In this document: positions 93 to 40,489 of the stretch, piece by piece | How the letters are laid out: each line of letters begins with the position of its first letter | Position numbering within the stretch: position 1 is the stretch's first letter | From: Catajapyx aquilonaris | Lineage: Eukaryota | Length of the DNA stretch: 40,489 nt | NCBI GenBank assembly: GCA_000934665.2 | Contig: JYFJ02003527.1 | Span: 1-40,489, forward strand | Reading direction: 5' to 3' | Notes under the pieces: generated by a model | What the model saw: only the letters and a program-made list of their open reading frames with translations | Databases searched by the model: none | Told to the model about the DNA's origin: nothing | Position numbers and translations under genes: made by a program

Positions 93-920
93 ACTGTAGG
101 TGGTCGAAATTAGGAACTTGATAACTTTCTACTGTGGCTGCTGGTTCACATCGACAAGTTGCAGCATGATGTCGCTACTTTAAAACATGCAAATAAACAG
201 TGTAAGCAACATCATAGGCTAAAAGAAATTATTGAATAGCATAGCTTAATTGCTGGGAAATGATGGCCAATAATAGCATACGCTGCAGTCTACCATGCGC
301 TTAGAAACAAACTGGGGCATCAGTGCTGCCAGCTCACCAATTCCATCTCTGCACATTTTACCACTGTCACCGGCAATTTGCAGCACGTTACCACAGAGAT
401 ATCTTGGTAGTTGGAATATGAAGCGCTTAGAACAAGTGGCCCAAGTCCAAAAATGCCCTTTTAGAGATAGGAATGGCTTGTGTATTCAGCTATAACAGAC
501 CTCGGTTATAACAAGACTGATCCCTTGAAGTCTATTATATCCGGATTCAATTTTATTACACCCAGTCAACAATGGTGTAAGTCCATGATTCTGTAGGATC
601 ATTATGGTGTAAGTCACATATGATTTTTTATCAATAAATCAGTTTTTTTGTTACAGTAGCAATACATCTAAAAAAGACTGCCATGTAATGATTGCCAATC
701 TGACATAATATGGATCGAGACATATGATTTCTCTTTCGAACTTGCAGGCGAATTATCCCAACTTGAGCTTTTTGGACTAGGGCCACTTTTGCCTCATATG
801 GACCCCTTCCCCTATTCATTTTCGTGTACAGGAATCTGAGGAATGTATCAGTATACTGGTATAGTAGGCATTCACTAAGGTATGAGCCTCTAACTCACAT
901 CAATTTCGGCATCCCTGCAG

Positions 921-1387
921 TTTTCTGACATGGTCCGCCTGAACTCGATTCGGTGTGGAACCGACACTTTGACTGATGAGGTCCGACCATACTGCATGGA
1001 CAGCGATCATTTGGACCAGGTGGTGCGCCATCGCTTGGTGGTGACTACTTGCAATGCATCAGGGACCTTCTACACTTTGGGCCTTCCCAATGGACACTTT
1101 ACACATGTGTTCATAGACGACGCAGGGTATGCCAATGAGCCTGAGGCACTGGTGCCCATTGGCCTTCTATCCACCAGTGATGGAGAAGCACAGGTGGTCT
1201 TGGCAGGAGATCCGAAGCAGCTGGGACCTGTCCTCACCAGCCATCTTGCCAAGAGGAATGGACTGGAATGCTCACTCCTTGAGAGACTTACTGCTGAAAA
1301 CCAACTGTACCAGAGGGATGATGTCAAATTTTCCCATGATGGAAACTATCACCCATTACTTGTCACAAACCTGGTCATCAATTACAG
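921..1387 (+). CDS. armi: helicase exon (motifs Ib-III)
   Basis: Acceptor ccctgcag|TTT at 920/921; donor TACAG|gtatgg at 1387/1388; phase 2. Confidence 0.85.
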
Positions 1388-10711: not shown

Positions 10712-10927
10712 CTACATGTGGCTGGCAGAGCTTCGCTGGAGCATCTGCATCATGGCATCTAGACTGGATGAGAGGCAGTCTGCGAAATTGAGTGACATGG
10801 TGTTCTCGCAGGCCCTGAAGCAAGTGAGACAGAACACGATGCAGTCCGGATGAGGATTGTACGCTGCTCCGTAGCCGTCGGGTACCACAGCTCCGTAGCC
10901 CATCACTGTGTCCTCTCGTGTTGGAAT
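10712..10927 (-). CDS. ChAT: ChAT terminal coding exon
   Basis: gacag|IPTREDTVMGYGAVVPDGYG...SHM TAG. Confidence 0.93.
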   Translation of the reverse strand: MPTREDTVMGYGAVVPDGYGAAYNPHPDCIVFCLTCFRACENTMSLNFADCLSSSLDAMMQMLQRSSASHM

Positions 10928-21300: not shown

Positions 21301-24300
21301 TATTTAAAACATTGTATTACCTTTTTGCACCACCATATTACATCTATTGAAGACTATAGGTTGCAATAGTCCTTTTAACTTGACACATGTTTTTTACGTC
21401 TTCTTGTGAGAAAAGCTCGGTTCTTGGCTCCACAAATCCGGAGATTGGGGGGCGTTGGAGGAAGAAAAGGACAACATTGTCCGGACAGATCGAAAGGGAA
21501 AGAAAGTCTCTAAGCTTCTTTTTGTGTCACAACGATAGCCCATGTCAAAGGAAAGGCTGAGAAAAGACGCTTCCAATCCTTAGAGGATTTTAGCATTTTT
21601 TTTCTCTCTCTCTCTTTCTCCTTTTCCTGAAAGATGCACTGAATATTACTTTAATTGGATGGATTGTAGTTGAGGGAATAGTGTACCATCGAATTTAAGG
21701 GAGTTTTGCCCTGTGGGAACATGTGGGGTGACCAAGACAAATGGTTTCTCTTTCATTTCGAACAATGTCAACACCACCTGTGCAGATTCCCACAAGACCC
21801 CTGTGAGTTTTATGCCTGATTCTGGTTTAGCTGCAATTTTACACAAATATTTTCCTCCATCATATTTATAAATAATTTTTTGCTCACATTGCTGATAAAC
21901 ACTGAAGGTTGATGCCTTACAGTGTATTTTTTTACATCGTCGTGCATCAATGTCAGTGTCCCCTGCTCATCCTTACAGTGCCATCCATTTCCCCTCCTAT
22001 TCGATACCATCCTCTCCACCACACTTACTCGAAATCAATCAATTATCACAACAAAGGCCACGATTCGTCACAGTGGCGGGTTATGAATGATTGAGAGGGA
22101 ACAGAGGGGACTCACGCTCCCTTTGCCAATTTAAACAAAGGGGGGAGAAGAGAGACCTGAAGAATAGAAGGGGGGGACACTATTATTATTGCAGGTTCCT
22201 TCCTGTATGTTTATAATACTCTACCACCACCCACTAACCCTCACCAGCCCGCCATCACCTTTTATAGCGAAAAGGGTAATTGGTTTGGAGGAACGAAGTG
22301 GGTTATGAAGGGTATTAATTGCTGGCATGCACCTGGAAAACAATTATCGGCCTACTGGTGTTGAATAATTGGTTGCAATTTTCGGACGACAAACTAAATA
22401 ATTATGACACGAGAGATAATTTTTGAAGTTGTCTAAATAGTTTTTTTGGTCCATAAATAGCCTCGCGATATGCTAATAAATATGGAAATAACTGAAACAG
22501 TGTATCAGTTACGCGATGCCTGAATTTGTGATGCCCTGCGATAATTGAATTATGATTTATGATCTGAACAAATTGCATCTGTACTAAATATGAAATCTGA
22601 GCTACTGTATGAACCAAAAATCAAACTTTCCATCTGAAAAACAACGGAGAAGTTGACCTAAAAACTAAAGTACTGTACATGTGTGTAAAGTACCTGTATT
22701 ACAATAATAATTGCAGCCTTATTAATTAACAATGATTTCAAAATGTTACTAAACAGACACATTCATTTCTAGGTAATGTTGGAGAAATTTCCGAACAGGA
22801 GTTAGATTAATTAAGACCATCCCATAACTGCAAGTCGTTAATAAGGAGCAACTTAGACATTCAGTTCTCAGGGATGCTGTGACTGCGGTTGGGAAATTTT
22901 CAAAGTAGGCGACGAGACTTTAGATATGTGTACACAGACTTAATCAACTTGATTCTGACGGGAACCACGCAGCTTCAACCACCACCAGGCACGTTTGTCC
23001 CCAGTGTCAGTTGGGTGATGAAATGCAGTCTGAGTGTCCGGGGAATGAAATCGATTTCAGCATGACAAATGAGGCAGTCAGGATGCTGGTCACACTAGCC
23101 TCCGTCCAAATGTAATGAAGGTGTTGACGCCATTGTTGTGACTGAAGGCTAAGCCTCAATCCTGCGCCACTAATCGACTTTGTCTGATTGTCTGGTTTCC
23201 TACCTTTGTAACAATAAGTTACGAGCTAATGGTCGTTATAATTGGTATGTTGCTTAAACTACCTAGGAAGAGCCTAGGCCTAACTAGGTAGGCCTATAAC
23301 CCGCGCCATCTCGTGGAGGCGTCCCTACACCATTCGACCCGCTTCATTCCCAGCCCCAATCCTTTTATGGTGTACCCTTGAAGAGGGTTCCGATGCGGAA
23401 AGAGGAGCTAAATAAGCGAGAAGAAGGGTCAAAGGGCCTCGGCCCATGCTTCAACGAAGAAGCAATTTTATTACTCCCTAGCAGGAGGGTGTTTCTGACT
23501 CACTCGAGTGCGTTTGGCCTAGGGAAAGAGTCAACATCGGCTATCCGAAGAGGTATTATGTCTACCTTTGGTTTCACTTAGAACATCTGATGGGGAACAT
23601 ATATCTTGTGTGGAGGTTGGTCAATAACAGCCAGGAAGCTCTGGCAACTTGCTGGAGGAAATTTTGGTGAGGGGCATGGGGCAGAAGAATCGACCCGTCA
23701 GCCAAAGTACTAATAGACTGGGCTAACGATCGGCGCTTGGCTCTATTAATGCTGCACGTGAGTCCATTCAAGCCTGCACGGGAACAAGCAGGTGAGAGAG
23801 GGGAAAAAGTGGCAGGAAATGTGCGATTGTGACGTGTTGCACAAATTATTATGGATCTTGGTGTTGGGATATATTGAGACAATTTTCTGAGGTGCAGGAA
23901 ATTTTACTGATGGCATAGGTAAAACCTCAGGCAGAAATGCACTGCTTAATAAATATGCAATAACTGAAATAGACACCTTAATTATTGGCACATGCTGTAC
24001 TGTAGGACTAATCAGTGTATTTTACTCGCAGTATTTATTATGCTTATAGGAACTGTCATGCATTGTGGAGCTTCCGACCATGACGAATTCCACAGTGTCC
24101 TTTGCCGTTCATTTAGAGTGAACGCAAATAGTTTCTGTTTACATTCCGCTCAATGGGCACCTGCTAACTCTAATCGAATCACGTTTTCCCCTAGAAACTC
24201 CAGGCGATTTAGGATGGAAATAGTCGCATGGGCAAACATGTCCTGCAACTGCTCATTACATGGATACACACCCAACCAACCCCTCTCTCCTTTTTTTGTG

Positions 24301-25105
24301 CACTAACAAACCCCTTAGGGTGTACCGAGGCAAAGGGTGGTGCGCGCCCCCCATTTTGCTTTTTGATTAATTGATATGGCACACGAGGCAAGGGAAAGCC
24401 GGTCGTTCTTTGTTTCGCCAGGGGGGTAGGGGTGAGTCGGACCCTTTTGAAAACTGCGTGCTAAGTACCCCTCGGGGTTGAGCAGAAAAGGGGGGGACAC
24501 CCTACCGGCTTGCTTTTGAATGAGAGGACCACTTGACATGTTTCGATGTCGGTGCCGACAGTGGCGTGGATGTTCCAAAGGACTGGAGCCCCTGAGTTTG
24601 CCCTTCGATCACCTCAAAAGGCCACTTAACTATTAAAGAAGGGAGGGGAGATTGACCCCCAGGGGAACCTATATGCAAATTGAACTAGAAGCATCGTTAG
24701 TTAATGTTAATAATTATTTTAAGCTACGGTTCTCGTTACTTTTGCAACCTAACCATGTTTATCCTTCAGGACTGAACCAGACACAACAAATGTTGGGATC
24801 TCCTTCCCTCCGCCTCGTAACATTTCCCTCAACGCAACCCTCAATATTATGGTCCATAATGGCCTCATAATATCTTCCGGTTGGGATGCTGTGGAAACAC
24901 ATTAATAGAGGGGGTCGTCCCTAGTAGGAGCCCATCTCCGTGAGAAAAGGGCACATGGCACCCTCAGTCCCCCATTGTTGTTGCGGAGTGTGAGTCAGTT
25001 TTACCTGGTTTTGGCTTGATCCAGCGGTGCCATCTTGCATGGGCGTGTTCCCGGCTGTGGCCGCCAGGAAGCGCCGGGGAAGTGAGAGGAATGAGTCCCG
25101 CCAGC
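10712..25105 (-). CDS. ChAT: Choline O-acetyltransferase, probably 5'-incomplete; complement(join(10712..10927,10998..11198,11372..11504,11580..11702,12408..12882,12975..13146,14040..14220,16114..16286,18870..19070,25005..25105))
   Basis: Motifs LPKLPVPPL, ENWAYQWWLEDMY, PLPINSNPG, QPLCMEQYYRLF, NRWFDKTVQ, catalytic EHSPSEG, TYESASTRRF-GRVDCIRSA, LSTSQIPT and MGYGAVVPDGYGAAYNP. Ten exons join in phase (1976 nt) and lie next to VAChT. Confidence 0.96.
10998..11198 (-). CDS. ChAT: ChAT exon
   Basis: cgcag|DEDKAAL...GEGIDIHLLGLRE...LSTSQ|gtcaga. Confidence 0.93.
11231..11365. repeat. Inverted repeat filling a short ChAT intron
   Basis: ccgagaacgtgaaacatgggtcc...gtcctgcgcatgcgc pairs with gcgcatgcgcaggacccacttttcacgttttcgg. 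Confidence 0.7.
11372..11504 (-). CDS. ChAT: ChAT exon
   Basis: cacag|G LNRKMVATYESASTRRF...GEAP|gtgagt. Confidence 0.93.
11580..11702 (-). CDS. ChAT: ChAT exon
   Basis: ttcag|A LIDELDL...YGKDFIK...SPDAYLQLALQLTYY GG|gtatgc. Confidence 0.93.
12408..12882 (-). CDS. ChAT: ChAT exon with catalytic His (EHSPSEG)
   Basis: tccag|AT PTNRTSL...NRWFDK...EHSPSEG...HNID AG|gtgcat. Confidence 0.94.
12975..13146 (-). CDS. ChAT: ChAT exon
   Basis: tacag|FYVLKV...VGILTAERRDVWA...RS G|gtatgt. Confidence 0.92.
13203..13459. mobile_element. PIF/Harbinger-type (Tourist-like) MITE with TAA target duplication
   Basis: TAA|GGTTGTGTCCATAAAATACGTCA ... TGACGTACTTTATGTCGACCCC|TAA; imperfect TIRs. Confidence 0.6.
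14040..14220 (-). CDS. ChAT: ChAT exon
   Basis: aacag|A RALPQD...QPLCMEQYYRLF...YKKE|gtaaca. Confidence 0.92.
16114..16286 (-). CDS. ChAT: ChAT exon
   Basis: tccag|AYQWWLEDMY...PINSNPG...VLD AG|gtacgg. Confidence 0.93.
17253..17288 (-). mobile_element. tRNA-derived SINE fragment (B-box GGTTCGAATCCC)
   Basis: Minus strand reads gcagggttcgaatcccggacaggtccc; no 5' tRNA half, so not a tRNA gene. Confidence 0.5.
18092..18298. repeat. Degenerate minisatellite, ~11-bp unit TATTAGTAAGA
   Basis: Tandem copies directly visible. Confidence 0.9.
18305..18385. repeat. (TTA)n microsatellite, ~27 units
   Basis: Perfect trinucleotide run. Confidence 0.97.
18870..19070 (-). CDS. ChAT: ChAT exon
   Basis: ttcag|DDGKLPKLPVPPLE...YENW|gtgagt. 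Confidence 0.93.
20000..20188. repeat. Long hairpin (20000-20126) plus a third arm copy (20154-20188)
   Basis: ~60-bp arms around a 5-nt loop; 20154-20188 is the exact reverse complement of 20029-20063. Confidence 0.85.
25005..25105 (-). CDS. ChAT: ChAT N-terminal small exon (xWRDSFLSLPRRFLA...MQDGTAGSSQNQ)
   Basis: tttcctacacag|GC TGG... ...CAG|gtaaaa. Resembles the recalled Drosophila ChAT segment GWKDSILSIPKKWLS and is in phase with the next exon. Confidence 0.82.
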
Positions 25106-28100
25106 CTGTGTAGGAAACAAATTTAACTCTAGTTTAAAAAGTGTAACCAGAAGTATTTTTTTTCAGTCCAGTGAGTGGTGACAGGCAACACTGCTTCTTG
25201 TTTTATGCCCAGACTAGGATAGGCCTAACCAGCGCCATCTCATGTAGGTGTACTGTACCTTTACCAACAGCCACTTTTAACCTCCAGGCTTTAACTGGCC
25301 GTTTGTAAATAAATAAGCTTATTTAACCTATCATTTTCTACTAATAAAAAAACCATGTTAACTGACCGTTTAAAAGAACTAGTCAAAGTTAGCTTATGTA
25401 GCTGGAGAATCCGATCATTACTGGTTCATTTTACATTACTGTTGACCTTCTGTTCAGTAATGGAAAATACATGTACGTTCGTTTTTAGTGGTAATGAGAA
25501 TAAACTTTTGGTTGTTAAATTAACTGTGCTGTAAGGGCACATTATTTATTCAGTAGTGGTTTATGGGAGGGGTCGACTGTTACACTTCAAGGTTTCTGTT
25601 ACTCTACAATTCAGACCCACAGACGAAAATAGCAAGGTCGTAAGTACGCTGTAACATGCTGATTCAAAGGCAGAAGATCGGTGGTTAGGCCTCTGGTGTA
25701 ATGCATAATTCAACGACACTGCCAGCTCACCTGTATTTTTTGGGCCTGACTTTTGCAGGGTTTTCCTAAACTGCATAATAATCAACAACAGATCTGCATT
25801 TTGTTTAAATCCTAGACTGTTTGTGTGCAGAGTGGCCAAAGTAATTTGCATTGTTTTAAAATACTGCCTTTGAGTAATACGTGTCCTTTGTTCACAACGG
25901 TAATTGAATCGTAACTTCAGGAGTAGTAATGGGTAATATTGCTATAAAAGTTTGAATGCAGCCACTTTGTTAAGAAAACAAGACTTTCCGTCATGATTGT
26001 AGACTACCATCTCAGACTATTTTGAATGCAAAAGTAAGTTTCTGCATTAGTTTGAGTAACTCCTATTTACATGACAGGCCCTTTCAGTCGCTTATTATTT
26101 GGCCACATGTTTTATGTTATGAGCCATACTTTGAACGCCTATAGGCCCTACTTAGAAGTTTGGCTTTCTAATTAGCATTGGGATGTTTAAAAGCCTGCAG
26201 GAAAGACTATTGTATTGCCGGTAACAAGGCATTTACAGTGCACCTAGTGCAGTTACCTGCTTTATATGTTCATGTTTTGATAACTACTAGAAATCTCTAA
26301 CTGAAATTGTGACATACTGAGCAATTGTCAACACTATTTTCAGTCCAACCGTCAAAACCGATAATTTGGGTTGTATCATGCAAGGATGAAAAGTGACCCA
26401 AGTGGAAGGGTACCTTTGCAAAAATATATAGCTCTCACCAACTGTCAGGTGACAAATACCCATCTTTCTAAGCAATCCTCTTCTGGCATACATCACAATA
26501 AATTCAAAAGTGTCACACCACCCGGTAACGTCACCATTCATCCCACGCTGTCACCAACCTCCCCATAAGTCACACTATATCCAGAGTTTGTACGACACGT
26601 CACAATTCCCATCCACCCTACCCAAAAAATCAACATTTCTCTCCTCGTCTCTGATCTTTATCGAAAAAAAAAAAACTCATTCCCGGAAGGAGCGAGAGGA
26701 CCAAAAATTTTCCGGAGGCACGAATTTAGGTAGGGGGGGGGGGGACTGAGGCTGTTCCGGGGAGTGTTCCGGAGCGACGTGACGGGAGAGAAGAAAGGAT
26801 GGATGGCCCTTTGAGACCATTGCTGGAAAAGGAGGATTTTTCGCCTTTCCCCCCCCCCCTCCCCCATGTTGCTTTTTCTAGAAAGGTTTACTGTGGAGGA
26901 GAGAGGCTGGACCTCTTCGTTTCGTGATGGTGACTTTGGATCCATTAGTGTAGATTCATTGCCTGCCTTTTATTAGTATTGCTACAGAGTGAACTGAGAC
27001 CATCTCTGAAAGAAGCGGTCTCAACACCAAGATTATGACGGTGAAGAACGTCTTTAATACCAGGTATTGCAAAAGAAGTTTAACAAGATTTTTCTCGTCC
27101 CCTACTAAGTCAACACGATTGGGTTTCGACTTGAGCCTTTAAAACCGTTAGTTGAGCCTTCATGAATTTTTTCTAAGAGGGGGTGTACACTATGCTGTTT
27201 CCGGTCCACCTTTTCCCTATAGAGTAGTGCTTCATCTTGCAGTTGAAGATTTGGACACATTTACTGCGATTTCTTTGACTGCCTCAGGAGGATTTTGCTC
27301 CTGGAGGTGTATAGAGTCCATTGTGATCAAGTTTTAGGGTAGCAATCTTGACTTATCTGTCCCTTGAGAAATTGGCTATAACTTCAAAGTTAATATGTCT
27401 GAATACAAATGGCAGGGGTTATGTACCCGATAAGAAGGCAGGTTCCGGTAGGAAAGAACTTTGAATCACCAGCAATGGTCCCCCTCTTTTTTCCACACGC
27501 AAAGCTCAGGTGCTGACTCACAAAATTTATTCCTCATTAGGACCATGGAAGGGCGAGCGGATGGGGAAGTCTATTTCCCTCACTCCGGGACAGACCGAGG
27601 GTCTCCCTGGAATCAATGCCAGTTACAACTCCGGTTCTTAATGGATGGTATAGCAGAAGACGTGGGCCCACTGATATACACAGGGAGGCAACAAAAATAA
27701 AACACATGAAAATCCACTCAGCTCGTAACTTTGTAAACCAAATTTGCGTGGAAATTCCATTTCAATTTCGAAGTTTGAAAGTAGCCGGATGCTAATTTTA
27801 GGAATCTGCAAGCCAAATTGGCAGGTATTTTTTTGCGCAGGTGAGCAAATCGGCTCCCATTTAATTCAATCCAATTCTGAGCGCAAATTATCCGGATAAC
27901 TTATCGAGTTATATGTGTCAAAGAAGTCATCAAATGTAGAGTGGTTCTCCCTGCAACATATATTGTACATAGAGTGAATCGGACATGGTTTCTCGTCACC
28001 TCTGATTGAATAAGTCCGCACTTGTCGCGCTAACTAATGCAGGCCACCACTCCTCTCACGCAGCCTAATTAAGTAGGATTTACCTTCAGATCCCAGAGAT

Positions 28101-31100
28101 TCCCATCCAGCGTGGCAAATCCCATGCAGGGAAGGGTGGGAGATGGGGGAAGGAGCAGGAGGGAGTGGAAATGGATAAAAGGGCCCGAATCTGTTTCGTC
28201 GCACACCCAAAATAATTCTCTACAAGAGTCTAATAGCTTAGGTGATATTGTGTGATTTAAGCCCACCACAAAATAATGAAAGGTGTCCTAACAATGCTGT
28301 CCCGCCGAGTGATATGCTAGGCCATTATGCCTATTTAAACCTCCCAGGCTATATCTAGTAGCAATAAATGCTTTCTGTCCATTAATTTTATTTTTAAACA
28401 TATTTAGTGCAATGTATGAGTTCACCCTTACCTAAGTACACTGCGACAGGAACTAATTCAACCTCTCTTCACCACGTAACTTAAATCCAGCCTTGGTTAG
28501 GACTCAGAAATAATCGCACGAATAACAAAGCCAATCCTGGACCTAGGTTCGATTGGGTTTCCCTCACCCTCCAGATTCACAGGGAAGCTGGAGGAGTAGG
28601 GGGAGAGGGAAGGAGGGATTTGCCATGGCCAATTGAGTTTTCGCTCCTCTCTTGCCAAGGAACCCGATCTATAAATTTAATATCAATTTAAGAGATGAAA
28701 GCCATTTCATGCTTGGGGAGACGGCCCGAAAGCTCTTAATGCTGCGAATATTACACGCATCGACAACAAGGGATCCGTCCACGATGACACGTGTCCTAAC
28801 CATATACGTCATTCTATGCTCAAGGGAAAGATGGAACTTGTAGATACTGAACAAGTTAGTTGTTTACAGCAATTAGCACTTACCTTTTGCCTTGTCTTCA
28901 AATTCTTCCTGGGTATTTTCAGCTTGAATTTACAGCCTCCATATTTGCCCCCTCCCAGAGCAAACACTTCAAATTTTCCGCAGCTTATCCTAAGCCAAAC
29001 AAAACTATAGAAAATATCCCCCACCTCCCTATTGGGCTATATGTGCTATACCCTGCAGTCACAAATTGGAGCAAGCCAGTTACGATTGTCAAGGGTGCCA
29101 TTTGCCTGCTCTTGCTTTCCATGGCTTCCTTTTCTCTTTTCTCCCCTCCTAGCCAGCAGCATCCTGATAGCAACCTCCCAATTATTCCGGTCGACGATAA
29201 ACCCGGTGGGGGCAGAGGATACCTTGCCAAGTTTCGGGGGTTATTGCCCATCTGAACAGGATATTGCGTCCGGATTATGACACCTGATCCAATAAGCCGG
29301 TATAGCACAATTTTAACCTTTTCGGCACTTGAATTTAACGGAGATATCTAGCCACGTGTTATTTCTGACATGGCAGACTGAAATAACAGTCGTTGTGAAC
29401 AACTGGATACAAAATATTGGCATTATTATTCTAGTGTGTTGACATAAATTTTGATCAAGAGTGTTAATAACCGCTCGTATATTACACACGGATCCAAGTA
29501 AAAGTCAGGCTAACCCCTGTCCTTTATTACACTTTTATGATCCAAGTCTCCCCCCATATTACGACGAAAGAGCAATAACTGCACTCTGCGGGTGGTGGCA
29601 CCACTGATCCTCTGTGTGTCACTCACAAACCAATCCTGGATGATGGATTTAGGTAATCACAGACGTTTGTGATATTTTATATGCTGACTATATCATTTAC
29701 CGTTAGAGGGCGAGTGTATTTTATTTTATTGCCAGCGAACCATATGATTACTATCCTTGTTGGACCACCCTGTACTCTAGAAATTCTTTTCAGGGCATGG
29801 TCGTCCCTTCTGAAGCCTTAAAAATAAAATTGGCCACCATGCAGTCTGGAGCTGGAAGGACTTTGCGAGAAAAAAAACCGTGTCTTCTCCCCCTCTGCAT
29901 CGATCCCTGGTCTCATTCTTTCTGGGGGAAGGATTTGGCTTGATTCCTAACGAGCTTGTAAGGTCGTCGGTGGCAATGGTTTTGGGGTGCCCCTGACCAG
30001 AGAAGAGGATTCAGCCATTTCCAGCAATCCATCACACTGTCGACCCAACACATTTCGACTCACGCACAAGGATTTGCTACCAAACCCTCTTCCAAATTTT
30101 TCCTTATTTTTTTACAAAAAAAAATTCAATGACGATCAGTTTTTAATAAGTATCTTGACAGATTTTTCACTTCGGTACCGCCTGCCAATCTGTCCCATTA
30201 AAGTGTGACAGCAAGGCCACCTGTAATTATATTAAGTCGTTAAAAGCTGTCTGTTGCGGCAGACATTTTTGCATCATTTGATGGAAGGAATCTCCCTCAG
30301 ATCAACCCCTAGCTAATATTCCAAATGGGATGGTATGAGATGTGCTTAGTCACCATACCCTGGGGAGGTAGGTTTAAAGGAGTGAATATGAGATTTTAAA
30401 AATATTTAACATTAAATTGCAATACGATTTCACATAACTATAACAATGATTTAGATACTCCCCAGGCAACACCAAAGTGTGATAAGATTGCCTGGTTATT
30501 TTTCTGAGTTACACTGTCATTTCTATCATTTTCCCCTCGCCTTGCGTAAACCTTATCTGACAAATTAGCATGATTAGACAGGACTCAAATTAGTGCAGAG
30601 ACCTCTAGAGGGGAGATGGTGAAAAGAGGGGGAAAAAAATAATCGAAAGTAGGGTGCAAGTAGATAGGAAGTTGTTGGGTTCCTCCACCCCTCTTGAACC
30701 ACCCGAGTGTTTGGACCGTCTCGTCATTGCCGGTAATTGGGTTATTCCGCGGGAATTCTGCCCAACAGACGGAGGGGGAATCTTACAAGGACATTTTTTG
30801 TGTGAAGATGGGGGAAGAAGTCTGTAACTCGCTGAGGGAACTCAGTCGCTGAAAGTTTCGCTTGGGAAGAAGGGGAGATACCGTTTATGTACTGGTAAAT
30901 AAACGCTGCACTTATTTCCAACACTACGTTTGAGGAACAAAATGGCTGACATTAGGTTGTCAGAATACTGTTGTCCAGGGTTCTAGATGATGAGCGATTA
31001 TTAAAAGTGCATGTCACTGTATATCATATATATTATTCCTCTCGATCTAACCTAAACAGGATTTGCTGCTTTCACATTCACATTAATTTCAGCCATCTTT

Positions 31101-33605
31101 TTTTAGTACACTTCACTGTACATGTTCAGCTTTTGCATACAATATTCTCTTTAACAGCATTCGGTAACAAACCAACTTTGCAAGTATTTTTTTTGGCGTG
31201 AAAATGCACACAAGTACACACATAGGAGCTGCGTCCAACCAATCACATCCGTCCTGGTTAACAATGTTTTCTTATTTTCTTTTGGTAAATCTTGCCTCAC
31301 AACACGAAGAAGGGAACACGAGTCACACATCTTTTTTTAAAACTTAGTGTTCTTTTTTTTGTAAGAAAAGTTTCTATTGCACACACTTGTAGCAATTGTT
31401 CAGGTGACGCTAAGCACACTTGTTTTCAAGTTAAAGCTGTTAACACCTTCCAAATTATACACCTTATTAGATGGCAACAAAATAACAAACATTTTACTTC
31501 AACAAGAAGTAAGATAACTCAAACGCTACTTTTTTTTTGTTCACTCGAAGAAGACAATAATTGACTTTCGAAGTGACTGTTAAAATAATACTCTTATTGC
31601 TTGATGGGAAACTTGAACTCTGTACAAAGTTTTAACACGACACTAACTATAGTTCCATCTCTGTATAGTTTGGTGTCCTACGTCTATTTTTTTTTAATTT
31701 GCTCCGTTAACACCGATATTTCAATTTTTAAATATTTGGTAGACATTGTAGACAGTTATGTCACATCAGGTTATTACTATATATTTTTTGACTGGGGGGG
31801 TTGAGTAAACAGGAAACGATTTTGAAAATAGCCTCTACCTTTTACACAGGGCTTCGATGTTGCAATCATATCTGGATATTTGAACAGTGTGCTTCAGTAT
31901 GTGTTTTACATGTGTCTTTTTTATGTAATAGTGTACAGGTATGTGTGTGTATTAGCAGTTTTATTGCTGTAGTGACAATCTCCAAGCCCACAATTTTGTT
32001 GTTTTTTTTCGGCTGCGAAAAAATGCGAAGAGTTGTTTCAAAAGGACGTTCGGTGGATAATAGACACATATAACATTTACTGTCGGGTTTTTTTTTTGAA
32101 GTATTTAGGATTCAAGGTAGGGTCCCGCACGTCACAACAGGTCTGCACGATTGGTACCAATTTTTAAAAATTCACTCCTCAATATATATTTTGCATACAG
32201 AAGAAAGCTCTGACATACATGACCTACCATTTTTCCACATGTTCTGCGTGCGTTATTTTATATTTATAACATTACATCATTCCTGCAGGCACCAAGAAAA
32301 CGCTCAACAGCAACTCGTGTGATTTAGTCGTAAATCTGCAGATCCACAGTTGACTTGGAGTTAACACAACATTGTTACCGGGTCATCATCAAGTCGTAAA
32401 TTACACGACATGTTGGGAAGTTTTAACTGGTGATATCTTATGTTGGGGGAGTATTTTTTTATATAAACAAAAGCGCAACAATTCTTTCATAACATCCCAA
32501 TAAGAATTGGTGGAATATCACAAACATTCTATGTACATTAATATTACATCTACCAAGTGCACCTGATTGATCACACCGGACACTGAGGTCAGGGGTCATG
32601 AGGAGGAATGGGTCTAATTTTTTTTTGTTCATGACACTATTTTTAACATTTGGGGGGGGGGGGNGTGGGGGGTAACTACTTCACAAACTAAACACCGTTT
32701 GGCTCTGTGTAGTAGTCTATGTTCCTCCTCAATAAATCAAAAATAATTATACACAACTATTATTATTTAATTATTAAAGACAGGATTATTCTCACCCGAG
32801 AAATTGTCCCGACCACTTACATTTGTAATGATATGTGTTAGCCTTGGTTGTTGTCATGATTGTGACATCAGCACAAACTATGACACGATATAAGACCACA
32901 ATTAATTACGCATCGCGCAATATTAGCATTTGGGGGGGGAGGGTTATAATAGATATACACATTTGAAGTTTGCAATGGGGAGCTTGAATATATTGGCTTT
33001 AAAAAAATAATTATGCGCTACAATCATGTGGAGCGTGAATAATCTCGCATGACCCGTTCCAGAAATAAGCTTGCGTGAGTCGCGTGATCTATTAAACCTA
33101 CTTTCCTTTTAAAAAGAAAAATTCGGGGGAATATATATTTTTTTTCATGAAAGATTTAAATCAATTCGACGGAAGACTAATTCGTACGGAAAAAATGGAA
33201 CACTCCTTGCCCACACAATAGGCAATTTTTTTTAACACAATATAATACTGATATAACTAAGCACCTCTAATTTGCAATGTTAAAAGGCGTACCCTCACTT
33301 TTTTTTGTCCTATCAACAATGAGAATCTTAATGCAAATACTTGGTAAGAACAATTAATTTTTTTACCATGCGTGTAGCCATTTTCCTGATACTTAAAAAG
33401 GGAACTTACCTCGTTACATTCAGGTCTCGACATGTCAATTTTTCGACCCATTTTCTAAGCTGTTTAGGGGCAGTTGAAGCGAGAAAATGAAATTTTGGCA
33501 CGCCTTGTATGTAAGCCATATTGGTGATCCATTGAAGTGCTTGCTTTTTTATATATATTTTTTATCAGATATATTTGGATACTGGAGTGTCCAAGTACAG
33601 ACAAG

Positions 33606-35498
33606 TTAATACCCAAACCCTTGTTTGAACGGGTTGGATCCGGTGGTACCTTGCTGTACATTGCTGGCTGGCGTACTTTGCCTAAACGGATTGTTGTCCA
33701 CCGGTGCCTGCTGCTGGTATTGCTGCTGGGGTTGCTGTTGTTGGTACTGTTGAGGTTGTTGTTGCTGGTATTGTTGTTGCTGTGGTTGTGAGGAAGGCGG
33801 AACAGGAGGTCGGGATGATGCAGGTGGTCTGGAAGGCTGGTTCTGCTGGGAATAACCAGCCGACCCGTACGACTGGTCCTGCGACTGGTTGTGGTATCCG
33901 TTAGGACCGACAGCGTCTATGTTAGTCTCGGTGATCTGGGTCGCCTGTCCGTCGGCGCACGGTTCTTCCTGCAGCTTGGAGTAGAGGAGGTGGTTCTTGA
34001 GTTCGTTGAGTATCGGCCTTGGACCCGAGCTGTCGTGCATGGCGTATGTCTGGTACTGCTTGTCAGGTGGGTCGCCCATGATGATGTTGGCCTCGTCTTC
34101 GAACGGCTTGTAGTCGTAGATGTTACGCAGGAAGGCCAGTACCGGTACGTACATGAGGTTGGAGATCGCGATGCCGATGTTGAGAGCCACGAACCCGATC
34201 GTTTGAACCACACCGCCAGCGATGATGGGCCCGATTGCGTATGCCATGGAGTAGGATATGTCGGCTATGGCGTAGATGCTGCCGTACACCGACACATGCC
34301 GTACGTCCACCAGGTATCCGAGTGTCGGCAGCAACGCGGTGTCGATCAGCGCGATTCCGAAGCATATCCCGCATATGGGTATCATCAGCACCCAGTACGA
34401 CGTGGCCATCGGGACTATGAAGCAGCAGAGACCCTCCATGGCCAGACCAATTGCAGCCATGAGCCACTGGTACTGTGGGTACTTTTTAGCCATTTTGACA
34501 GTCAGCACCACGCCGAAGACATGTGGGAAGAAGGCCGGCAGCCAGATCATGCCCATCTGCCACTCCACCACGTCCATGTGGTCCATCATCCAGAGGGATA
34601 TGGTCGGCTCCAAGAAGGCCAGAGACACATTGGACATCATGAGTGCTCCTGCGCACACCGCGATGTACGGGTCCATCAGCAGCTGCCATATTGGGGTGCC
34701 CTTCTGGTGCTCCATACTCTGCTCCTTCAGGATCTGCTTGATCGGCTTCATCACCAGAAGCAGCATGAGACCATCAGCCAGACAGACAAATGCCAGGACC
34801 AGGAAGGGAAACTCCTTCCCGCAGAACTCGTACAGGATGCCTCCGAACGGGGGCGCTACCAGACACCCGAAAGAGATGAAGGCCAGGGCTATACCCAACG
34901 CCTGTTGTCGTTCGTTCTCTTCCGTGAACCTGTCCGCAATCATGGCCAGTCCGGATGTGTCAGCGAACGCGGACCCAACACCCTGAAGACTACGTGCAAA
35001 AAACAGCACGCTGTAGCTGGTACCGCACGCGAACACGGCCGTCGAGAAGAACATGATGGTGAGTCCGACCATCATCGGGATGTCGTACCCTATCCTGTCG
35101 ATCAGCGCTCCTGAGAAAGGGTTCACCATCAGCTGGATCATGGCTTTGGAGGCGAACAGCACCCCGATGGCCGAGTCTTCTCCTTCGTACACGATCATTC
35201 CTTTCATCAGCCTCCCAGGACCTGCCGCTACGCTGTAGTTTCCAGTGGCGTTGACGTGCCACGTGGGCGCATCGGTCACCATCACCTGGCCCTCGGTGTG
35301 AGTGTCCCACACCCCTATCTTCCGGAGGTAGTCCGGTATGATGGGCACGATGACCATATAGAGCATGTTGTCCAACAGGAGGGCTATGGACACGATGACC
35401 AGGACCAGCCTGCGTTGCGCCCTTGGTTCTTGAAGTCGGTCCCATAATGCGGCCCTCAGGTCGTTCAGCTCCAGGTTCAGCCCCGGTACCGTCGGCAT
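33606..35498 (-). CDS. VAChT: Vesicular acetylcholine transporter (SLC18A3), intronless, 630 aa
   Basis: Motifs ALLLDNMLYMVIVPIIPDYL, LFASKA, RSLQGVGSAFADT, LAFLEPTI, ALIDTALLPTL and YGSIYAIADISYS; Q-rich tail; Kozak ACCATG; same strand as and upstream of the ChAT exons. Confidence 0.97.
   Translation of the reverse strand: MPTVPGLNLELNDLRAALWDRLQEPRAQRRLVLVIVSIALLLDNMLYMVIVPIIPDYLRKIGVWDTHTEGQVMVTDAPTWHVNATGNYSVAAGPGRLMKGMIVYEGEDSAIGVLFASKAMIQLMVNPFSGALIDRIGYDIPMMVGLTIMFFSTAVFACGTSYSVLFFARSLQGVGSAFADTSGLAMIADRFTEENERQQALGIALAFISFGCLVAPPFGGILYEFCGKEFPFLVLAFVCLADGLMLLLVMKPIKQILKEQSMEHQKGTPIWQLLMDPYIAVCAGALMMSNVSLAFLEPTISLWMMDHMDVVEWQMGMIWLPAFFPHVFGVVLTVKMAKKYPQYQWLMAAIGLAMEGLCCFIVPMATSYWVLMIPICGICFGIALIDTALLPTLGYLVDVRHVSVYGSIYAIADISYSMAYAIGPIIAGGVVQTIGFVALNIGIAISNLMYVPVLAFLRNIYDYKPFEDEANIIMGDPPDKQYQTYAMHDSSGPRPILNELKNHLLYSKLQEEPCADGQATQITETNIDAVGPNGYHNQSQDQSYGSAGYSQQNQPSRPPASSRPPVPPSSQPQQQQYQQQQPQQYQQQQPQQQYQQQAPVDNNPFRQSTPASNVQQGTTGSNPFKQGFGY
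33706..33790 (-). repeat. Coding Gln-rich repeat in VAChT tail (QQYQQQQP-like x3)
   Basis: Translation SQPQQQQYQQQQPQQYQQQQPQQQYQQQA. Confidence 0.9.
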
Positions 35499-36962
35499 GG
35501 TGACAACCTTATGACCTCACGACACTATTCGACATTGAGGTATTAGAGAGGAGGCGACGGAGCAATCATTCTACACCCCGCTAGACCATAGATTTTTAAA
35601 CTATTGTTCAAAAGTGTCCGGTTTAAGCTGTCCCAATGGTGCGTCGCTCGTCCGTTATCTTGTGTGTGCAGGAACAGATGGGAACGAGTGATGTCCGCTG
35701 GATGCCATGGGTCATCATGGGACGGGTTGACCTTCAAAGAAGGAAAAAAAGGAACATTTTTTAGAAAAAAATTTACTTTTGTCAGCCCGTTTTTTTAAAA
35801 AAGAGAAGTTATTGTTTTTGATAATAATAACTGATGGGGTTTTTATAAGTGAGAGTGAAGCGCACTCGTTCCCATCTCCTCCTGTTAAGGAATATAAAGA
35901 AATGTGACAAGAGCATTTTAGAGTGATCCATCAAAATCATTTCCTGAAATACTTTTTTTTTACGCAAGTTCACTTTTTCAAACCCCATCACTAAAATGGT
36001 GGTGTGTCGGTGTGTGTCATGCACGTACCGTAAAATTGCAATGGTGTGATGATGTTATTATACAGGCGATGAACAGTTTATTTGTGGGGGAAATGCTACC
36101 AATGGACGGCTCAACAAAAATACTGTACTTCGAATTGTTTTATTGCATGCGATGTAAATGCCGTGTACATTATTTTTCAAAGGTAATCACGTAATTGCGC
36201 GTGTTCAGTGTTACTGTACATTCAGCGAGAGTCGATCAATATTATTCAACTACACATGCCATCTATGAACTACTTATAATGTTATACACACCGATCTACA
36301 CAACAATGGGTTTAATTATGAAGATAGAACAAATATTGTTATCTGCTATGAAAGTTTTGAGTATGAAAATGTTAGGACTTTGTCTACTACAATCGGCCAA
36401 ATTATTTACATACAACTTGAGCAACATCTGAGGAACGAACAGTATAGCAACTCTAACGTATTAGTTGCGCGGTAATAAAATACGATAACGATAGTCATCA
36501 ATGAGTACAAGATTACTGTTTCAAAACATATAACTTTAAAATTATAATGAAGTTATTATTTGAAAATCACCTGACTGATTATAATGCAGTATAGAGTGTA
36601 ACATATTGTCTAGAAACTCTGCATTTTTTTTGCCTTCGTCAAATGCTTTAGGCTGCATCACGCAGGCTTTATTATTGCCACATTCACTATTTGCTTAGTG
36701 TGTGTTCCTGAATGGGCCAGCCACAAATTACGGAATGTGCCAAAAGGTGTCAACTGTGTAGTCACTCCCACGCCCCACGCTGGGCGCCACTATCAAATCC
36801 CTGATTATTATTAATAGTAGTAGTAGCATGCTAGTTAATTTTGACACGGACCATTTTTGAGGTCGATACCTCAACTACATATTTATGAGTTCTGAAATTA
36901 CGTGTATGCATTAAATTGCGATTGGCAGCATTCCGTAATTTACAGATGGTCCGAGGAAGTCA

Positions 36963-36968
36963 TTTATT
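36963..36968 (-). terminator. Candidate polyadenylation signal of the VAChT-like paralog (second candidate 36668-36673)
   Basis: AATAAA on the minus strand ~80 nt after the stop. Confidence 0.4.
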
Positions 36969-37046
36969 TATGAGATTAGAGAAAAATAAATGCTATGGAC
37001 AACAGTCTAAGCGAAACATTCATTCTTGTCCTAACCACCCTCCCAA

Positions 37047-38621
37047 CTAATGCACATAATCGTACGGCACCGGTGCCCTCATAATGTTGGGTTGCTGCAC
37101 ACATGCAAAATATCTGGGCATCGGCGGGTCATCCAGCAACACACTATGATCCGCCAGCATCTGCAAGGGTTGATTCTCATTGGCATCGGCCACATTGGAC
37201 TCCTCCACGTACAAAGACCGCAACGAAATGAGGAACGGAGCGAAGAGAATGGCACACAGCCCGATGACGTACATGAGCGGGGAAAACCCTATCAACTGCA
37301 CCAGTCTCTTGGACGTGATTGGGGCCAACGCGAAACCCACGTTGTAACACATGTTGACCAGGGCGAACACCCGTCCGTAAGCAGACAGATACCGAGAGTC
37401 AACCAACGAGGCCATTGTCGGCAGGAGGATCATGTCGATTAGTGTGACCCCGACGCATATACCGCACATGACCACAGCCAATTTCCAGCAACAGTGCGCT
37501 ACTGGTATCAAGAAGGTGCATACCCCTTCCAGAAGCAGACCAAGTACCAACAGGACCCACTGGTGCTGCGGGTACGAGCTTACCATCTTGTAAGCGGCCA
37601 GTATGGACACAGCCACAGTGGACAGAAATATGGCGGACTGCGTGCCTGCGTTGATTCCCACTAGAGACCGCAAGGTAGGTATGGTGTCGATTGTGTGTGC
37701 CAGGTAGGCAGGGGGTATCCTGGAGATGATAAGGGCACCGGCTGGCAGGATGACCTGCGGGTCCATCAGTAGGAACCAGATGGGGACGCTGACCACTTCG
37801 GTATGCCGGTGAACTAGTCTGGACTTGACAGGTCTGACTATAATGATGCTCAGACCCACTGACAGAAGCAAAGAGGCCTGGAGCAAGAACGGCTCGGTTT
37901 TCCCCACGTGCGAGTACATGTACTCCCCAATCCTAGCGCTGTAGATGATCCCAGCCGAGACAAGCAGCTCGGACAGCCCGTAACCCATGACCCTCTCGTT
38001 TCGACCCCTGATGACATATGCCACCAGCGCAAAGGCAGCAGTCTCCGCAAAAGCCGAGCCTATCCCTTGCAACGCGCGTCCCAGCAAACTCAAGAAGTAA
38101 TTCTCCCCATACGCAAAAGTGACCCCTGACACGAACAAGAACCCAACACCCAAAATCATGGTTAGGTCAGTCCCGTGCTTCTCCACCAGCGATCCGGCTT
38201 TGGGGCAGGTGACGATTTGAAACAAGGACTTGGCAGCGTAGAGGAACCCGAAGCTAAAGTCCCCGTAGCTGTCGTAGTTGAACACGGTCCTCTCTATGAT
38301 GGTGGTAGTGTTGAGCAGAACCCCGTTGTGGTTTCTGGCACCATCCAGCTCCCTCTGGAAGTACGAGGCCAGAGGACCGGTGACGGGCACCAGCTGTATT
38401 CTGGCCGGCACAGTCACCACCCCTCGTTCCATCAGAAACTTGGTGACAATGGTCATGGAGGATCCATTCAGGACGCTGACCAGGAATAGTGTTAGAGGAA
38501 CCACCACGAGGACAAACCGTTTTTGGCAAGTGTCGCTCTGAAGGCAGGAGCAGAGGTAGTCTTTGAGTCTGGTGTTGTTGGAACTGGTTGTTGTGGTGGT
38601 TGTTGTGGTGGTGGTTGACAT
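37047..38621 (-). CDS. Divergent VAChT-like SLC18/MFS transporter paralog, intronless, 524 aa
   Basis: Uninterrupted ORF from GCCATG (38621). Collinear by eye with the neighbouring VAChT: QKRFVLVVV, YAAKSLFQI, RALQGIGSAFAET, PIWFLLMDP, YPQHQW, GICVGVTLIDMILLPTM, LVDSRYLSAYG. Multiple hydrophobic segments. Confidence 0.9.
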   Translation of the reverse strand: MSTTTTTTTTTTSSNNTRLKDYLCSCLQSDTCQKRFVLVVVPLTLFLVSVLNGSSMTIVTKFLMERGVVTVPARIQLVPVTGPLASYFQRELDGARNHNGVLLNTTTIIERTVFNYDSYGDFSFGFLYAAKSLFQIVTCPKAGSLVEKHGTDLTMILGVGFLFVSGVTFAYGENYFLSLLGRALQGIGSAFAETAAFALVAYVIRGRNERVMGYGLSELLVSAGIIYSARIGEYMYSHVGKTEPFLLQASLLLSVGLSIIIVRPVKSRLVHRHTEVVSVPIWFLLMDPQVILPAGALIISRIPPAYLAHTIDTIPTLRSLVGINAGTQSAIFLSTVAVSILAAYKMVSSYPQHQWVLLVLGLLLEGVCTFLIPVAHCCWKLAVVMCGICVGVTLIDMILLPTMASLVDSRYLSAYGRVFALVNMCYNVGFALAPITSKRLVQLIGFSPLMYVIGLCAILFAPFLISLRSLYVEESNVADANENQPLQMLADHSVLLDDPPMPRYFACVQQPNIMRAPVPYDYVH

Positions 38622-39353
38622 GGCCAAACTCTCCCCCTACGTACTTGTTGTGTCTTCTCGGTTTGTCTGGCACGTGGCAGTGGCCGTTGGTGTGATGGAG
38701 GCGCATAGCAGACAACCCCGCCCTCTGTATGCGACGTTGTACTCTACGCAGCAGCGTTCATGGTAGTAGTCTTGAACAGAGAGGAAAACGGAAACCATTT
38801 TCAGTGGGGGATCTTCCTTGTGCAGTCCACATTCAAGAAGCGATTAACCACACCCCAGATTAAACCCAAACGGACGTCATTACCATTATATGCGAATCTG
38901 TCCCGTACACTACGCAAGCCTGCGAATTACAAGTTAGGTAGCTCCGGGGCGCGACCTTCTAGTGCATGTACTGCACTGCGGTTGAGCCGCAAAATTAAAC
39001 AGGGGAATGGGAAACTTCACAAATTAGAAATGAAGTCGTTATTAATGCACAGGTGAAACTGCCGAGGCTCGAAGTGCCGTAGCTTGAAAGATGGACCAAT
39101 ATATTCTAAATAAACTTTTTGAATAAGTTACACACAGCGATATTTCATGCACCCTAAGTGAAAGTCAATTAATTCAGAGAAGTTTCTAGCTGACACACAC
39201 CATGCGGTTGCACAGTCATGTTGTGTGACAATAACTGCGACCATTCACGAAACGGGTGAAAGATATAACTACAGCGTCCCATTGATGTGTCCGTTTCACT
39301 CGGCAATTATTTGCAAGCTAAACTACCTTCCGAAGTCCTAAAATTAACACCCA

Positions 39354-39397
39354 ATGAAACTGTTCCAAAGAAACTAGTTTCTTTGGAACAGTTTCAT
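39354..39397. repeat. 44-bp perfect palindrome without spacer
   Basis: atgaaactgttccaaagaaact|agtttctttggaacagtttcat. Confidence 0.95.
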
Positions 39398-40489
39398 CAA
39401 CATGAAGGGCAAATAAAATAATATCGAAAAACGGACACTCGTCTGGAATACGCTGTTAAAAATGCACGCATAGGAACTATATCCGTTATGTTCATCCCAT
39501 CTATGAGCATATTAACACATTTGCATTAACATTAATATAATCCGGTAATGTTCAACCCTCCTTGTAATATAGCGGTACCTTCTTAAACCAGGTGCATAAA
39601 GAATCTTTAAAAACTGCTGCGAATCATGCAGAAATTTGCATATAATTTGGTTGAACTGAATGTCCCTTTAAAATGTCCAATATCATCACGACTGAGCCCG
39701 GCTGCAATGTGAATCCCACAACAAGACTAATCGCCATCCCCTGTCAAGGTCACACCCCTCACCGACAGCATCAGATAACGAGATGCTTATAAGTGTCAAC
39801 GGAATAACGTTAAGTTGCATCAACAATATTCGAGATGACACAACCCCCCCTTCCCCTCCGTATGGAATTCAGCAGCTGGGAACAAAATGTCTTCTCCTGT
39901 CCCCCTCTCCTATATCTCCCCAAAAGATTAGCCTCCTCTCTCTTCGTTATTGCCATCGCCATTACCTTCCCCGAGAACCTCTATTTTTCTTCTTCTCTCC
40001 TACCCTCCTCCTTTCACGTCCCATGCAATTAGGAAGGACGAAGGGCAGTTGGTTCCCAACTTTGCCCACTCTTTTTCCCCCCCGCTGTTTCTTTCAAGAG
40101 GAACACTTGTACTTTTCCTCAACACACTCCACAGAATTGTGAGAGACATTTTGACAGCGACATGGCGACACTTTTCGTGCAATAGAATTGCGTGGTCAGA
40201 ATTGTACCGAGTTGGTTGAATACCAGAACTTTTTTTTTTTGAGTTGTCGGTTCCAGCTGCCATATGCAATGTGAGACATTTTGTTCACTACCGGTACGTA
40301 AATGAGACAACGTAGCCTGCACGATGAGATGAATTATTAATGCACAGCGTGATGCCTTCACCTCCTTTCAGTATTATGCAGTGAGCTCTATCGGTTATTT
40401 TCTACTCCCGGTTGTATAATGCTATAGATATTGATCTGAGGATGAGCATTATAAATTTCGTTTGGGGGTGACCGAACCAGTACTGTCCC

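Follow-up and report, generated by a model that had tools for sequence, protein, structure and literature searches.

A cholinergic locus carrying an additional, highly diverged VAChT-like gene in Catajapyx aquilonaris

Layout of the locus

The nested locus of choline acetyltransferase (ChAT) and VAChT, the transporter that loads acetylcholine into vesicles, is a textbook example of two linked genes that share a promoter by alternative splicing. The DNA analysed here, positions 1 to 40,489 of contig JYFJ02003527.1 of Catajapyx aquilonaris (GenBank assembly GCA_000934665.2), a stretch of 40,489 nucleotides referred to throughout as the window, contains an arthropod cholinergic gene locus carrying one extra unit, termed gene B. 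All of the genes of the locus lie on the minus strand, in the order gene B, the VAChT exon with open reading frame (ORF) A and ten ChAT coding exons; ChAT and VAChT are adjacent, with VAChT upstream of the ChAT-specific exons. An earlier note on this DNA had described two intronless transporter ORFs upstream of ChAT on the same strand, and both are indeed present, each matching the Pfam family MFS_1 (118.5 bits for A and 86.8 bits for B). The two proteins display 31% identity over 501 amino acids (E 2e-72).

33606 to 35498, minus strand: ORF A, intronless, 630 amino acids
37047 to 38621, minus strand: ORF B, intronless, 1575 nucleotides with the stop codon included, 524 amino acids

Evidence on splicing was provided by X1, the only public run containing the region (word share 0.40), which is available as contigs. 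These were aligned to positions 20490-40489 of the window and were found to cover exon-like pieces only, without internal joints and with breaks at 35733 and at 25004/25108; as judged from these exon-only, spliced contigs, X1 behaves as spliced RNA. The identification of a cholinergic locus in the earlier note is upheld by the VAChT and ChAT exons, each of which is entered through the acceptor that had been named for it.

The VAChT exon

The whole of the VAChT ORF is contained in one exon, which is spliced from an upstream non-coding exon.

35732 to 35750, minus strand: VAChT splice acceptor (polypyrimidine tract followed by AAG), marked by a contig break and with 16 of 18 pyrimidines
32667 to 35731, minus strand: VAChT exon, composed of the 5′ untranslated region (UTR; 35731-35499), ORF A (35498-33606) and the 3′UTR, covered by X1 contigs to 32667

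On sequence comparison ORF A is the VAChT (SLC18A3) orthologue, because it scores better with human VAChT chains (555 bits, E 1.8e-165) than with VMAT1 (356 bits), is 59-74% identical to hexapod VAChTs (best 120 of 2080 relatives) and retains 16 of the 17 pocket or charged positions listed below, at which it agrees with ten VAChT orthologues from several phyla. At the position of S225 it has a cysteine, as do seven of the ten orthologues compared. The named rows among its best 120 of 2080 relatives are all hexapods (insects and one springtail). Two quick trees were calculated, with 60 rows chosen from 150 proteins (tree 1) and 43 rows chosen from about 300 (tree 2), and in the 43-row tree A falls with hexapod VAChTs in a clade of 12 rows with a support of 100. 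The VAChT sequence thus points to an arthropod that belongs to, or is close to, the hexapods and crustaceans.

The VAChT exon probably extends to 31021, past a single N at 32664, the only one in the window, which falls in the gap ahead of the next contig. That contig-covered continuation is represented by a 1597-nucleotide X1 contig (depth 30) that is colinear on 31021-32625 with four substitutions and ten gap letters, the differences clustering around 31530 and 32086-32278. It probably corresponds to the distal VAChT 3′UTR with polymorphisms, which would give a UTR of about 2.6 kb. At the other end of the exon, upstream ATGs are present in the 5′UTR (35499-35731, minus strand), and a short upstream ORF is among them, immediately after the acceptor. 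A scan of metagenomes for related loci yielded two, each with at most 227 nucleotides upstream of VAChT, too short for synteny; one of them (contig L002, 1-260) encodes a VAChT 63% identical to A and has, about 90 nucleotides before the ATG, a pyrimidine-rich '...gttcaaag|G', an AAG-type acceptor as in the window.

The ChAT gene

On the minus strand, positions 1-33700 contain 233 ORFs, counted from stop to stop, with a length of 38 amino acids or more, and all of these were compared with Pfam. Nine of them match Carn_acyltransf (PF00755), in order and jointly spanning profile positions 1-573, while the ORF holding the 25105 exon has no Pfam match, as expected for a short N-terminal exon. A model with GT-AG introns gives ten coding exons between 25105 and 10712, encoding 636 amino acids with a single terminal stop. 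In the list below, every exon from the third onwards is defined by its PF00755 match and the GT-AG model.

25005 to 25105, minus strand: first ChAT-specific exon (101 nucleotides), likely ATG at 25040, with an X1 contig on 25004-25108
18870 to 19070, minus strand: ChAT exon, profile positions 1-67, defined by its PF00755 match and a splice joint
16114 to 16286, minus strand: ChAT exon, profile positions 62-120
14040 to 14220, minus strand: ChAT exon, profile positions 120-174
12975 to 13146, minus strand: ChAT exon, profile positions 174-236
12408 to 12882, minus strand: ChAT exon with the catalytic-His 'EHS' stretch, profile positions 239-374
11580 to 11702, minus strand: ChAT exon, profile positions 368-409
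11372 to 11504, minus strand: ChAT exon, profile positions 407 to about 453
10998 to 11198, minus strand: ChAT exon, profile positions 454-523
10712 to 10927, minus strand: last ChAT coding exon, stop codon included

For all three of the exons tried as queries (single exons, not the joined protein) the top PDB match was ChAT, with scores of 82.0, 46.4 and 54.5 bits compared with 76.2, 46.1 and 39.3 bits for carnitine acetyltransferase. A complete Carn_acyltransf domain, the catalytic histidine and the greater proximity to ChAT than to carnitine acetyltransferase identify the predicted product as choline acetyltransferase.

Splice joints and the position of the leader

The joint between the first two ChAT exons is given by an X1 contig of 627 nucleotides (record 1), which lies on 25004-25108. 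Because its loose end at 25004 is identical to 19040-19069, with no mismatches, the joint connects the exon 25105-25005 to 19070 when the G common to both sides is assigned canonically. At the VAChT exon the situation is different: of the 389 nucleotides of record 7, 68 lie on 35666-35733 and the other 321 match nothing in 20490-40489. The exon starts at 35731, and the letters at 35732-35733 fit both sides of the joint. Thirty nucleotides at this joint gave no match anywhere in the window with up to three mismatches allowed. The VAChT exon is thus joined at 35731 to at least 321 nucleotides of upstream exon sequence that are absent from the window, and its 5′ partner is found neither between VAChT and B (35734-37046) nor in the window's remaining 1.9 kb ahead of B (38622-40489).

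These results bear directly on the earlier note, which had seen no convincing ChAT first exon between VAChT and its paralogue and had named a shared ChAT/VAChT first exon within 35731-37047 as the case that would speak against its proposal: the same 30-nucleotide search agrees with the former, and the latter did not occur, the VAChT partner exon being absent from that interval. Three pyrimidine-rich acceptors had also been proposed. Those at 35731 and 25105 coincide exactly with breaks in the X1 contigs, whereas that at 38770, ahead of B, is a motif with no RNA support.

By analogy with other arthropods, ChAT and VAChT would share a single leader in Catajapyx. The accessible text on Ixodes describes an 82-bp exon 1 common to both mRNAs, with the VAChT ORF exon inside ChAT intron 1 (PMC7524744), and that on moths two common 5′UTR exons followed by the VAChT exon (bioRxiv 10.1101/2021.03.29.437568). 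In the window, the ChAT contig (record 1) starts four letters before the exon with one non-genomic letter followed by CAG, and the VAChT leader would end in CCAG if its acceptor is canonical; these ends are compatible with a shared leader, although four letters make a weak argument. The leader is likely to lie beyond 40489, upstream on the minus strand. The leader is absent from the window; therefore, if it is upstream, B is located, as VAChT is, within intron 1 of this transcription unit, and such nesting is considered to be probable.

It is, on the other hand, quite improbable that B is not nested but is an upstream neighbour, the 321 or more nucleotides having come from elsewhere through mis-assembly, an unplaced scaffold, trans-splicing or a chimeric contig. 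This alternative would account for a leader that is not seen in the window and for a joint that appears in one contig of one run only, and it has a parallel in the Ixodes ChAT exon that the accessible part of the report places on another scaffold (PMC7524744). However, the VAChT joint falls exactly at a canonical polypyrimidine-AG, and the ChAT contig of X1 joins two exons of the window exactly, so that the contigs are reliable at splice sites. Moreover, the 321-nucleotide loose part is far longer than spliced leaders usually are.

Origin of gene B

Gene B scores 204.7 bits with VAChT and 155.5 bits with VMAT1. A HMMER search with B among 1.84 billion representative proteins returned 748 matches at E ≤0.001, the best of which has 36% identity and 223.7 bits, and no orthologue of B was found among them; each of the 70 matches compared scores higher with A than with B. 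A separate homologous-protein search with B as the query gave no match. B is, as its sequence indicates, extremely diverged.

Tree 1 groups B with the VAChT side, which comprises 29 rows and has a support of 100, yet attaches it to other long branches there; tree 2 leaves B unplaced, and its end branch has a length of 4.14. A tree in which A and B are sisters is not rejected (approximately unbiased test, p-AU 0.552), with a log-likelihood 4.6 above that of the free quick tree. The trees cannot date or place the duplication.

The C-terminal tail of B aligns with the arthropod VAChT motif EAN / [LI][LM]xDPP / Y. The tail consists of ADAN, a 12-residue insert and VLLDDPP..Y, compared with DEANI-IMGDPP..Y in A and EANILMSDPP..Y in insects; in the alignment 'DHSVLLDDPP' of B stands opposite the arthropod 'EANILMSDPP', and the human chain has 'VLLDEPP'. 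The C-terminal di-leucine motif is a sorting motif in VAChT. We infer that B descends from VAChT because of its better VAChT scores, this C-terminal motif, the adjacency of the two genes and their common intronless, same-strand structure. Gene B would accordingly have arisen long ago as a tandem copy of the unit formed by the VAChT exon, and would since have been kept as a coding gene and have evolved very fast; when the flanks of the A and B units were compared, no nucleotide similarity was found to remain.

The altered pocket of gene B

Among 163 columns that are near-invariant in 20 VAChTs, B keeps 72 and six VMATs keep 87-109. Human residue numbers were mapped by alignment with an offset of 83, which reproduces all 14 residues named in the accessible part of the structural account (PMC11369146). 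According to the same text, acetylcholine is contacted by N47, Y50, M51, I221, S225, N302, L305, I394, D398, Y428 and Y432 (PMC11369146). The 17 positions compared here are D46, N47, Y50, M51, K131, D193, I221, S225, N302, L305, E309, W331, I394, D398, D425, Y428 and Y432, at which B has, in order, V S N G K E V I R P A F V D N Y F. K131, W331 and D46 presumably have roles of their own in VAChT.

Eleven VAChTs from several phyla are invariant at 16 of these 17 positions, and B keeps three (K131, D398 and Y428). Its changes include D46V, N47S, Y50N, M51G, N302R, L305P, E309A and D425N. As regards the acetylcholine contacts, two of the 11 are identical (D398 and Y428), three are conservatively substituted (I221V, I394V and Y432F) and six are changed. 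The acidic residues of the pocket are changed at D193E, E309A and D425N, the last two being replacements of proton-linked residues, and D398, the amine-binding aspartate, is kept. Retention amounts to 3/16 at pocket positions compared with 69/147 at the other invariant columns (Fisher p = 0.035). The term 'new transporter' used in the earlier note is a fair one for a divergent VAChT-like SLC18 protein in which the acetylcholine pocket is largely replaced. The pattern of substitutions suggests that B probably no longer carries acetylcholine and acts instead as a vesicular transporter for another cation.

Gene B as a probably maintained gene

The reading frame of B is intact across 524 codons despite the 31% identity to A. 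Its G+C content by codon position is 0.521/0.412/0.698, compared with 0.575/0.389/0.737 in A and 0.534/0.392/0.75 in a ChAT exon, and the value at position 3 contrasts with those of the B flanks (0.358 and 0.429). An AlphaFold2 model of B, calculated from a VAChT-rich alignment of 39 rows, has a mean predicted local distance difference test (pLDDT) score of 81.9 and a predicted template modelling (pTM) score of 0.82, and its five best fold matches in the PDB are all human VAChT (Foldseek TMt 0.88-0.90). B is thus predicted to have the 12-helix MFS fold of SLC18 proteins, with VAChT as its nearest solved relative; given the VAChT-rich alignment, the model mainly suggests that nothing in B would break the fold.

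It is probable that B is a maintained gene. The converse, that B is a silent or recently dead duplicate without function whose open frame is a leftover, is very unlikely. It would be in keeping with the 72 of 163 VAChT-invariant columns kept, fewer than in VMATs, with the loss of E309, D425 and D46, and with nothing closer than 36% identity in the representative library. Yet a frame of 524 codons that had drifted neutrally to 31% identity with A should have been interrupted many times over, the G+C content at codon position 3 (0.698) stands well apart from the 0.36-0.43 of the flanks, the sorting motif, K131 and D398 are retained, and the model folds confidently, albeit from a VAChT-rich alignment.

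No X1 contig lies on the coding sequence of B; this concerns one run and counts as evidence neither way. A 33-nucleotide X1 match at 38585-38617 was rejected as spurious, since it is loose on both sides and falls in the low-complexity ACC repeat encoding the poly-Thr stretch of B.

Candidate expression signals of gene B

38771 to 38790, minus strand: candidate B splice acceptor (polypyrimidine tract followed by AAG), exon start at 38770, motif only
36963 to 36968, minus strand: first AATAAA after the B stop codon, 79 nucleotides downstream of it
36668 to 36673, minus strand: second AATAAA after the B stop codon, 374 nucleotides downstream of it
36714 to 36952, no strand assigned: 239-bp stretch with 24-nucleotide inverted arms, 79% complementary, possibly a small transposon

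The candidate exon start at 38770 is located 149 nucleotides before the ATG of B. The acceptor has 15 of 18 pyrimidines, a value reached by 29 of the 2285 AG sites on the minus strand, and it shares its unusual AAG form with the VAChT acceptor that was verified. By chance alone, a site of this quality would be expected within 150 nucleotides of the ATG in about 10% of cases. AATAAA candidates after the stop of the paralogue, which the earlier note had reported, were found at 36968-36963 and 36673-36668. In the region upstream of B (38622-40489) no TATA box and no pair of an initiator (Inr) with a downstream promoter element (DPE) was found among core-promoter words; four Inr-like words occur there compared with about 2.6 expected, a weak test. 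A perfect 44-nucleotide palindrome lies upstream of B at 39354-39397.

A 254-nucleotide X1 contig on 36700-36952 was considered as evidence of a B 3′UTR and was rejected: it has four mismatches and ends exactly at the outer end of an inverted arm. It may come from another copy of the small transposon; the window contains no second copy of the inverted-arm stretch 36714-36952.

The most likely route for the expression of B appears to be splicing of the shared leader to 38770, an assignment that is put forward tentatively and at less than even probability. It is also possible, if somewhat doubtful, that B is nested in the first intron but independent: a separate promoter located between 38622 and the leader, and a separate polyadenylation site, would serve B, and the cells expressing it would not have to be cholinergic. 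Genes that lie within an intron on the strand of their host are commonly driven by promoters of their own; in addition, no RNA evidence from X1 ties B to the leader, the motif at 38770 has a chance expectation of about 10%, and the flanks of A and B keep no nucleotide similarity that would show an inherited acceptor. An independent B is less easily reconciled with the strong acceptor-like site just upstream of its ATG, in the AAG form of the VAChT acceptor, and with the lack of a TATA box or an Inr and DPE pair in 38622-40489, itself a weak test; furthermore, a tandem copy of a terminal-exon unit would begin by using the leader.

Proposed explanation

The explanation that best accommodates these observations, taken as a whole, falls just short of an even chance: the leader would lie beyond 40489, and B would be a nested, fast-evolved VAChT duplicate with a different cargo that is expressed by way of the shared leader. 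The VAChT exon unit would have been duplicated in tandem long ago to give rise to B, which was kept as a coding gene and evolved very fast while retaining the fold, the amine-binding D398, K131 and the C-terminal di-leucine/DPP motif. With most of the acetylcholine-contacting residues and the two proton-linked acidic residues replaced, the cargo may be some other cation. The shared leader would be spliced to 38770, and the transcript would end at the AATAAA 79 or 374 nucleotides after the B stop, so that B would constitute a third alternative 3′-terminal exon competing with VAChT and ChAT.

The hypothesis of a three-way alternative splice, raised in the earlier note, can be extended to a functional scheme that must be regarded as unlikely in its full form. 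One promoter and leader in cholinergic neurons would feed B, VAChT and ChAT as alternative terminal units. A further vesicular transporter, its pocket rebuilt, would then be present in cholinergic terminals, either in all of them or in those selected by splicing, and would load a different cationic co-transmitter, while the acceptor and poly(A) sites of B would hold back the output of VAChT and ChAT.

Several points weigh against the nested, leader-fed duplicate. The RNA nature of X1 is deduced from its contigs, the record giving its kind as '?'; the genomic place of the leader is not seen, nesting being deduced from its absence within 4.7 kb; and no X1 contig attests to transcription of B. 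Sites as pyrimidine-rich as that at 38770 occur about once per 1.4 kb on the minus strand, and the would-be B 5′UTR starting there contains two upstream ATGs, although the verified VAChT 5′UTR has some too. With respect to descent, joining B to the VMAT side is equally not rejected (p-AU 0.571), and the trees cannot place B. Finally, B is without residues that are invariant in VAChT and VMAT alike, a pattern that relaxed constraint would also give, and the depletion of pocket positions was tested post hoc, with a p value of no better than 0.035.

Expression of B, if it occurs, would make the protein a candidate for an orphan vesicular transporter, with the amine-binding aspartate and the sorting motif kept and the pocket replaced. 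It would then be relevant to co-transmission in the cholinergic neurons of arthropods, cells that are important targets of insecticides. Should the leader not be used for B, what remains is a nested paralogue specific to one lineage. The locus offers a natural experiment on whether a new exon unit in this intron inherits cholinergic co-expression.

Neighbouring genes

Three further ORFs of the 233 scanned match inorganic pyrophosphatase; these exons (PF00719; 6451-7547, minus strand) follow ChAT immediately downstream and have the same orientation. Three ORFs on the plus strand (897-3504) match the helicase domains AAA_11/AAA_12 (E 1.5e-12 to 2.8e-19) and make up the 3′ portion of a gene for an SF1 (UPF1-like) helicase, which is convergent with the pyrophosphatase and ChAT genes. 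A search against Rfam gave no matches.

Comparison with known systems

Compared with human VAChT/SLC18A3 (8zmr, 8zms, 8xtw and 9kkn), its best sequence match, B is alike in the modelled 12-helix fold, in D398, K131 and Y428 and in the tail motif, and differs at 14 of the 17 pocket or charged positions, with 72 of the 163 invariant columns kept. A parallel in evolutionary behaviour is provided by the VAChT-like paralogues of scarab beetles (the P0027 family, from Popillia, Trypoxylus and Oryctes, together with P0292 and P0293), which are likewise lineage-restricted and fast-evolving, fall on the VAChT side of tree 1 and have a remodelled pocket. The P0027 family has three relatives with identities of 57-58%, and two of these are from named scarabs. 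Scarab beetles own a divergent VAChT-like paralogue, and such offshoots therefore recur. The scarab proteins are about 29% identical to B, no closer than VAChTs are, and they have an arginine at the position of D398 and a tyrosine at that of D425, whereas B keeps the aspartate at D398.

Drosophila portabella (prt) is described in the accessible text as a transporter 'related to VMAT and VAChT' with an unknown substrate (PMC8566550). Compared by description only, since none of the proteins retrieved is labelled as prt, it is alike in concept, as an extra arthropod SLC18-type vesicular transporter. We take prt to lie outside the fly cholinergic locus.

The ChAT/VAChT locus itself, as described in the accessible parts of the reports on Ixodes and moths (PMC7524744; bioRxiv 10.1101/2021.03.29.437568), is alike in having a single-exon VAChT ORF upstream of the ChAT-specific exons on the same strand. 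In both cases splicing joins a non-coding leader, located upstream, to the VAChT exon, and ChAT starts in the next exon downstream. The nested locus is also found in Drosophila, in C. elegans (unc-17/cha-1) and in mammals. What sets the locus of Catajapyx apart is that another SLC18 ORF, highly diverged, stands between the VAChT exon and the leader, which is itself not seen. The full-text literature searched, where absence is not proof, yielded no cholinergic locus described as having such a third gene of the SLC18 family. The locus is thus of a known type with a new extra gene. To our knowledge, the ChAT/VAChT locus is usually regarded as a unit of two genes that stays constant between nematodes and mammals, and a third, VAChT-derived gene in the same intron would show that this unit can grow by duplication of its internal terminal exon.

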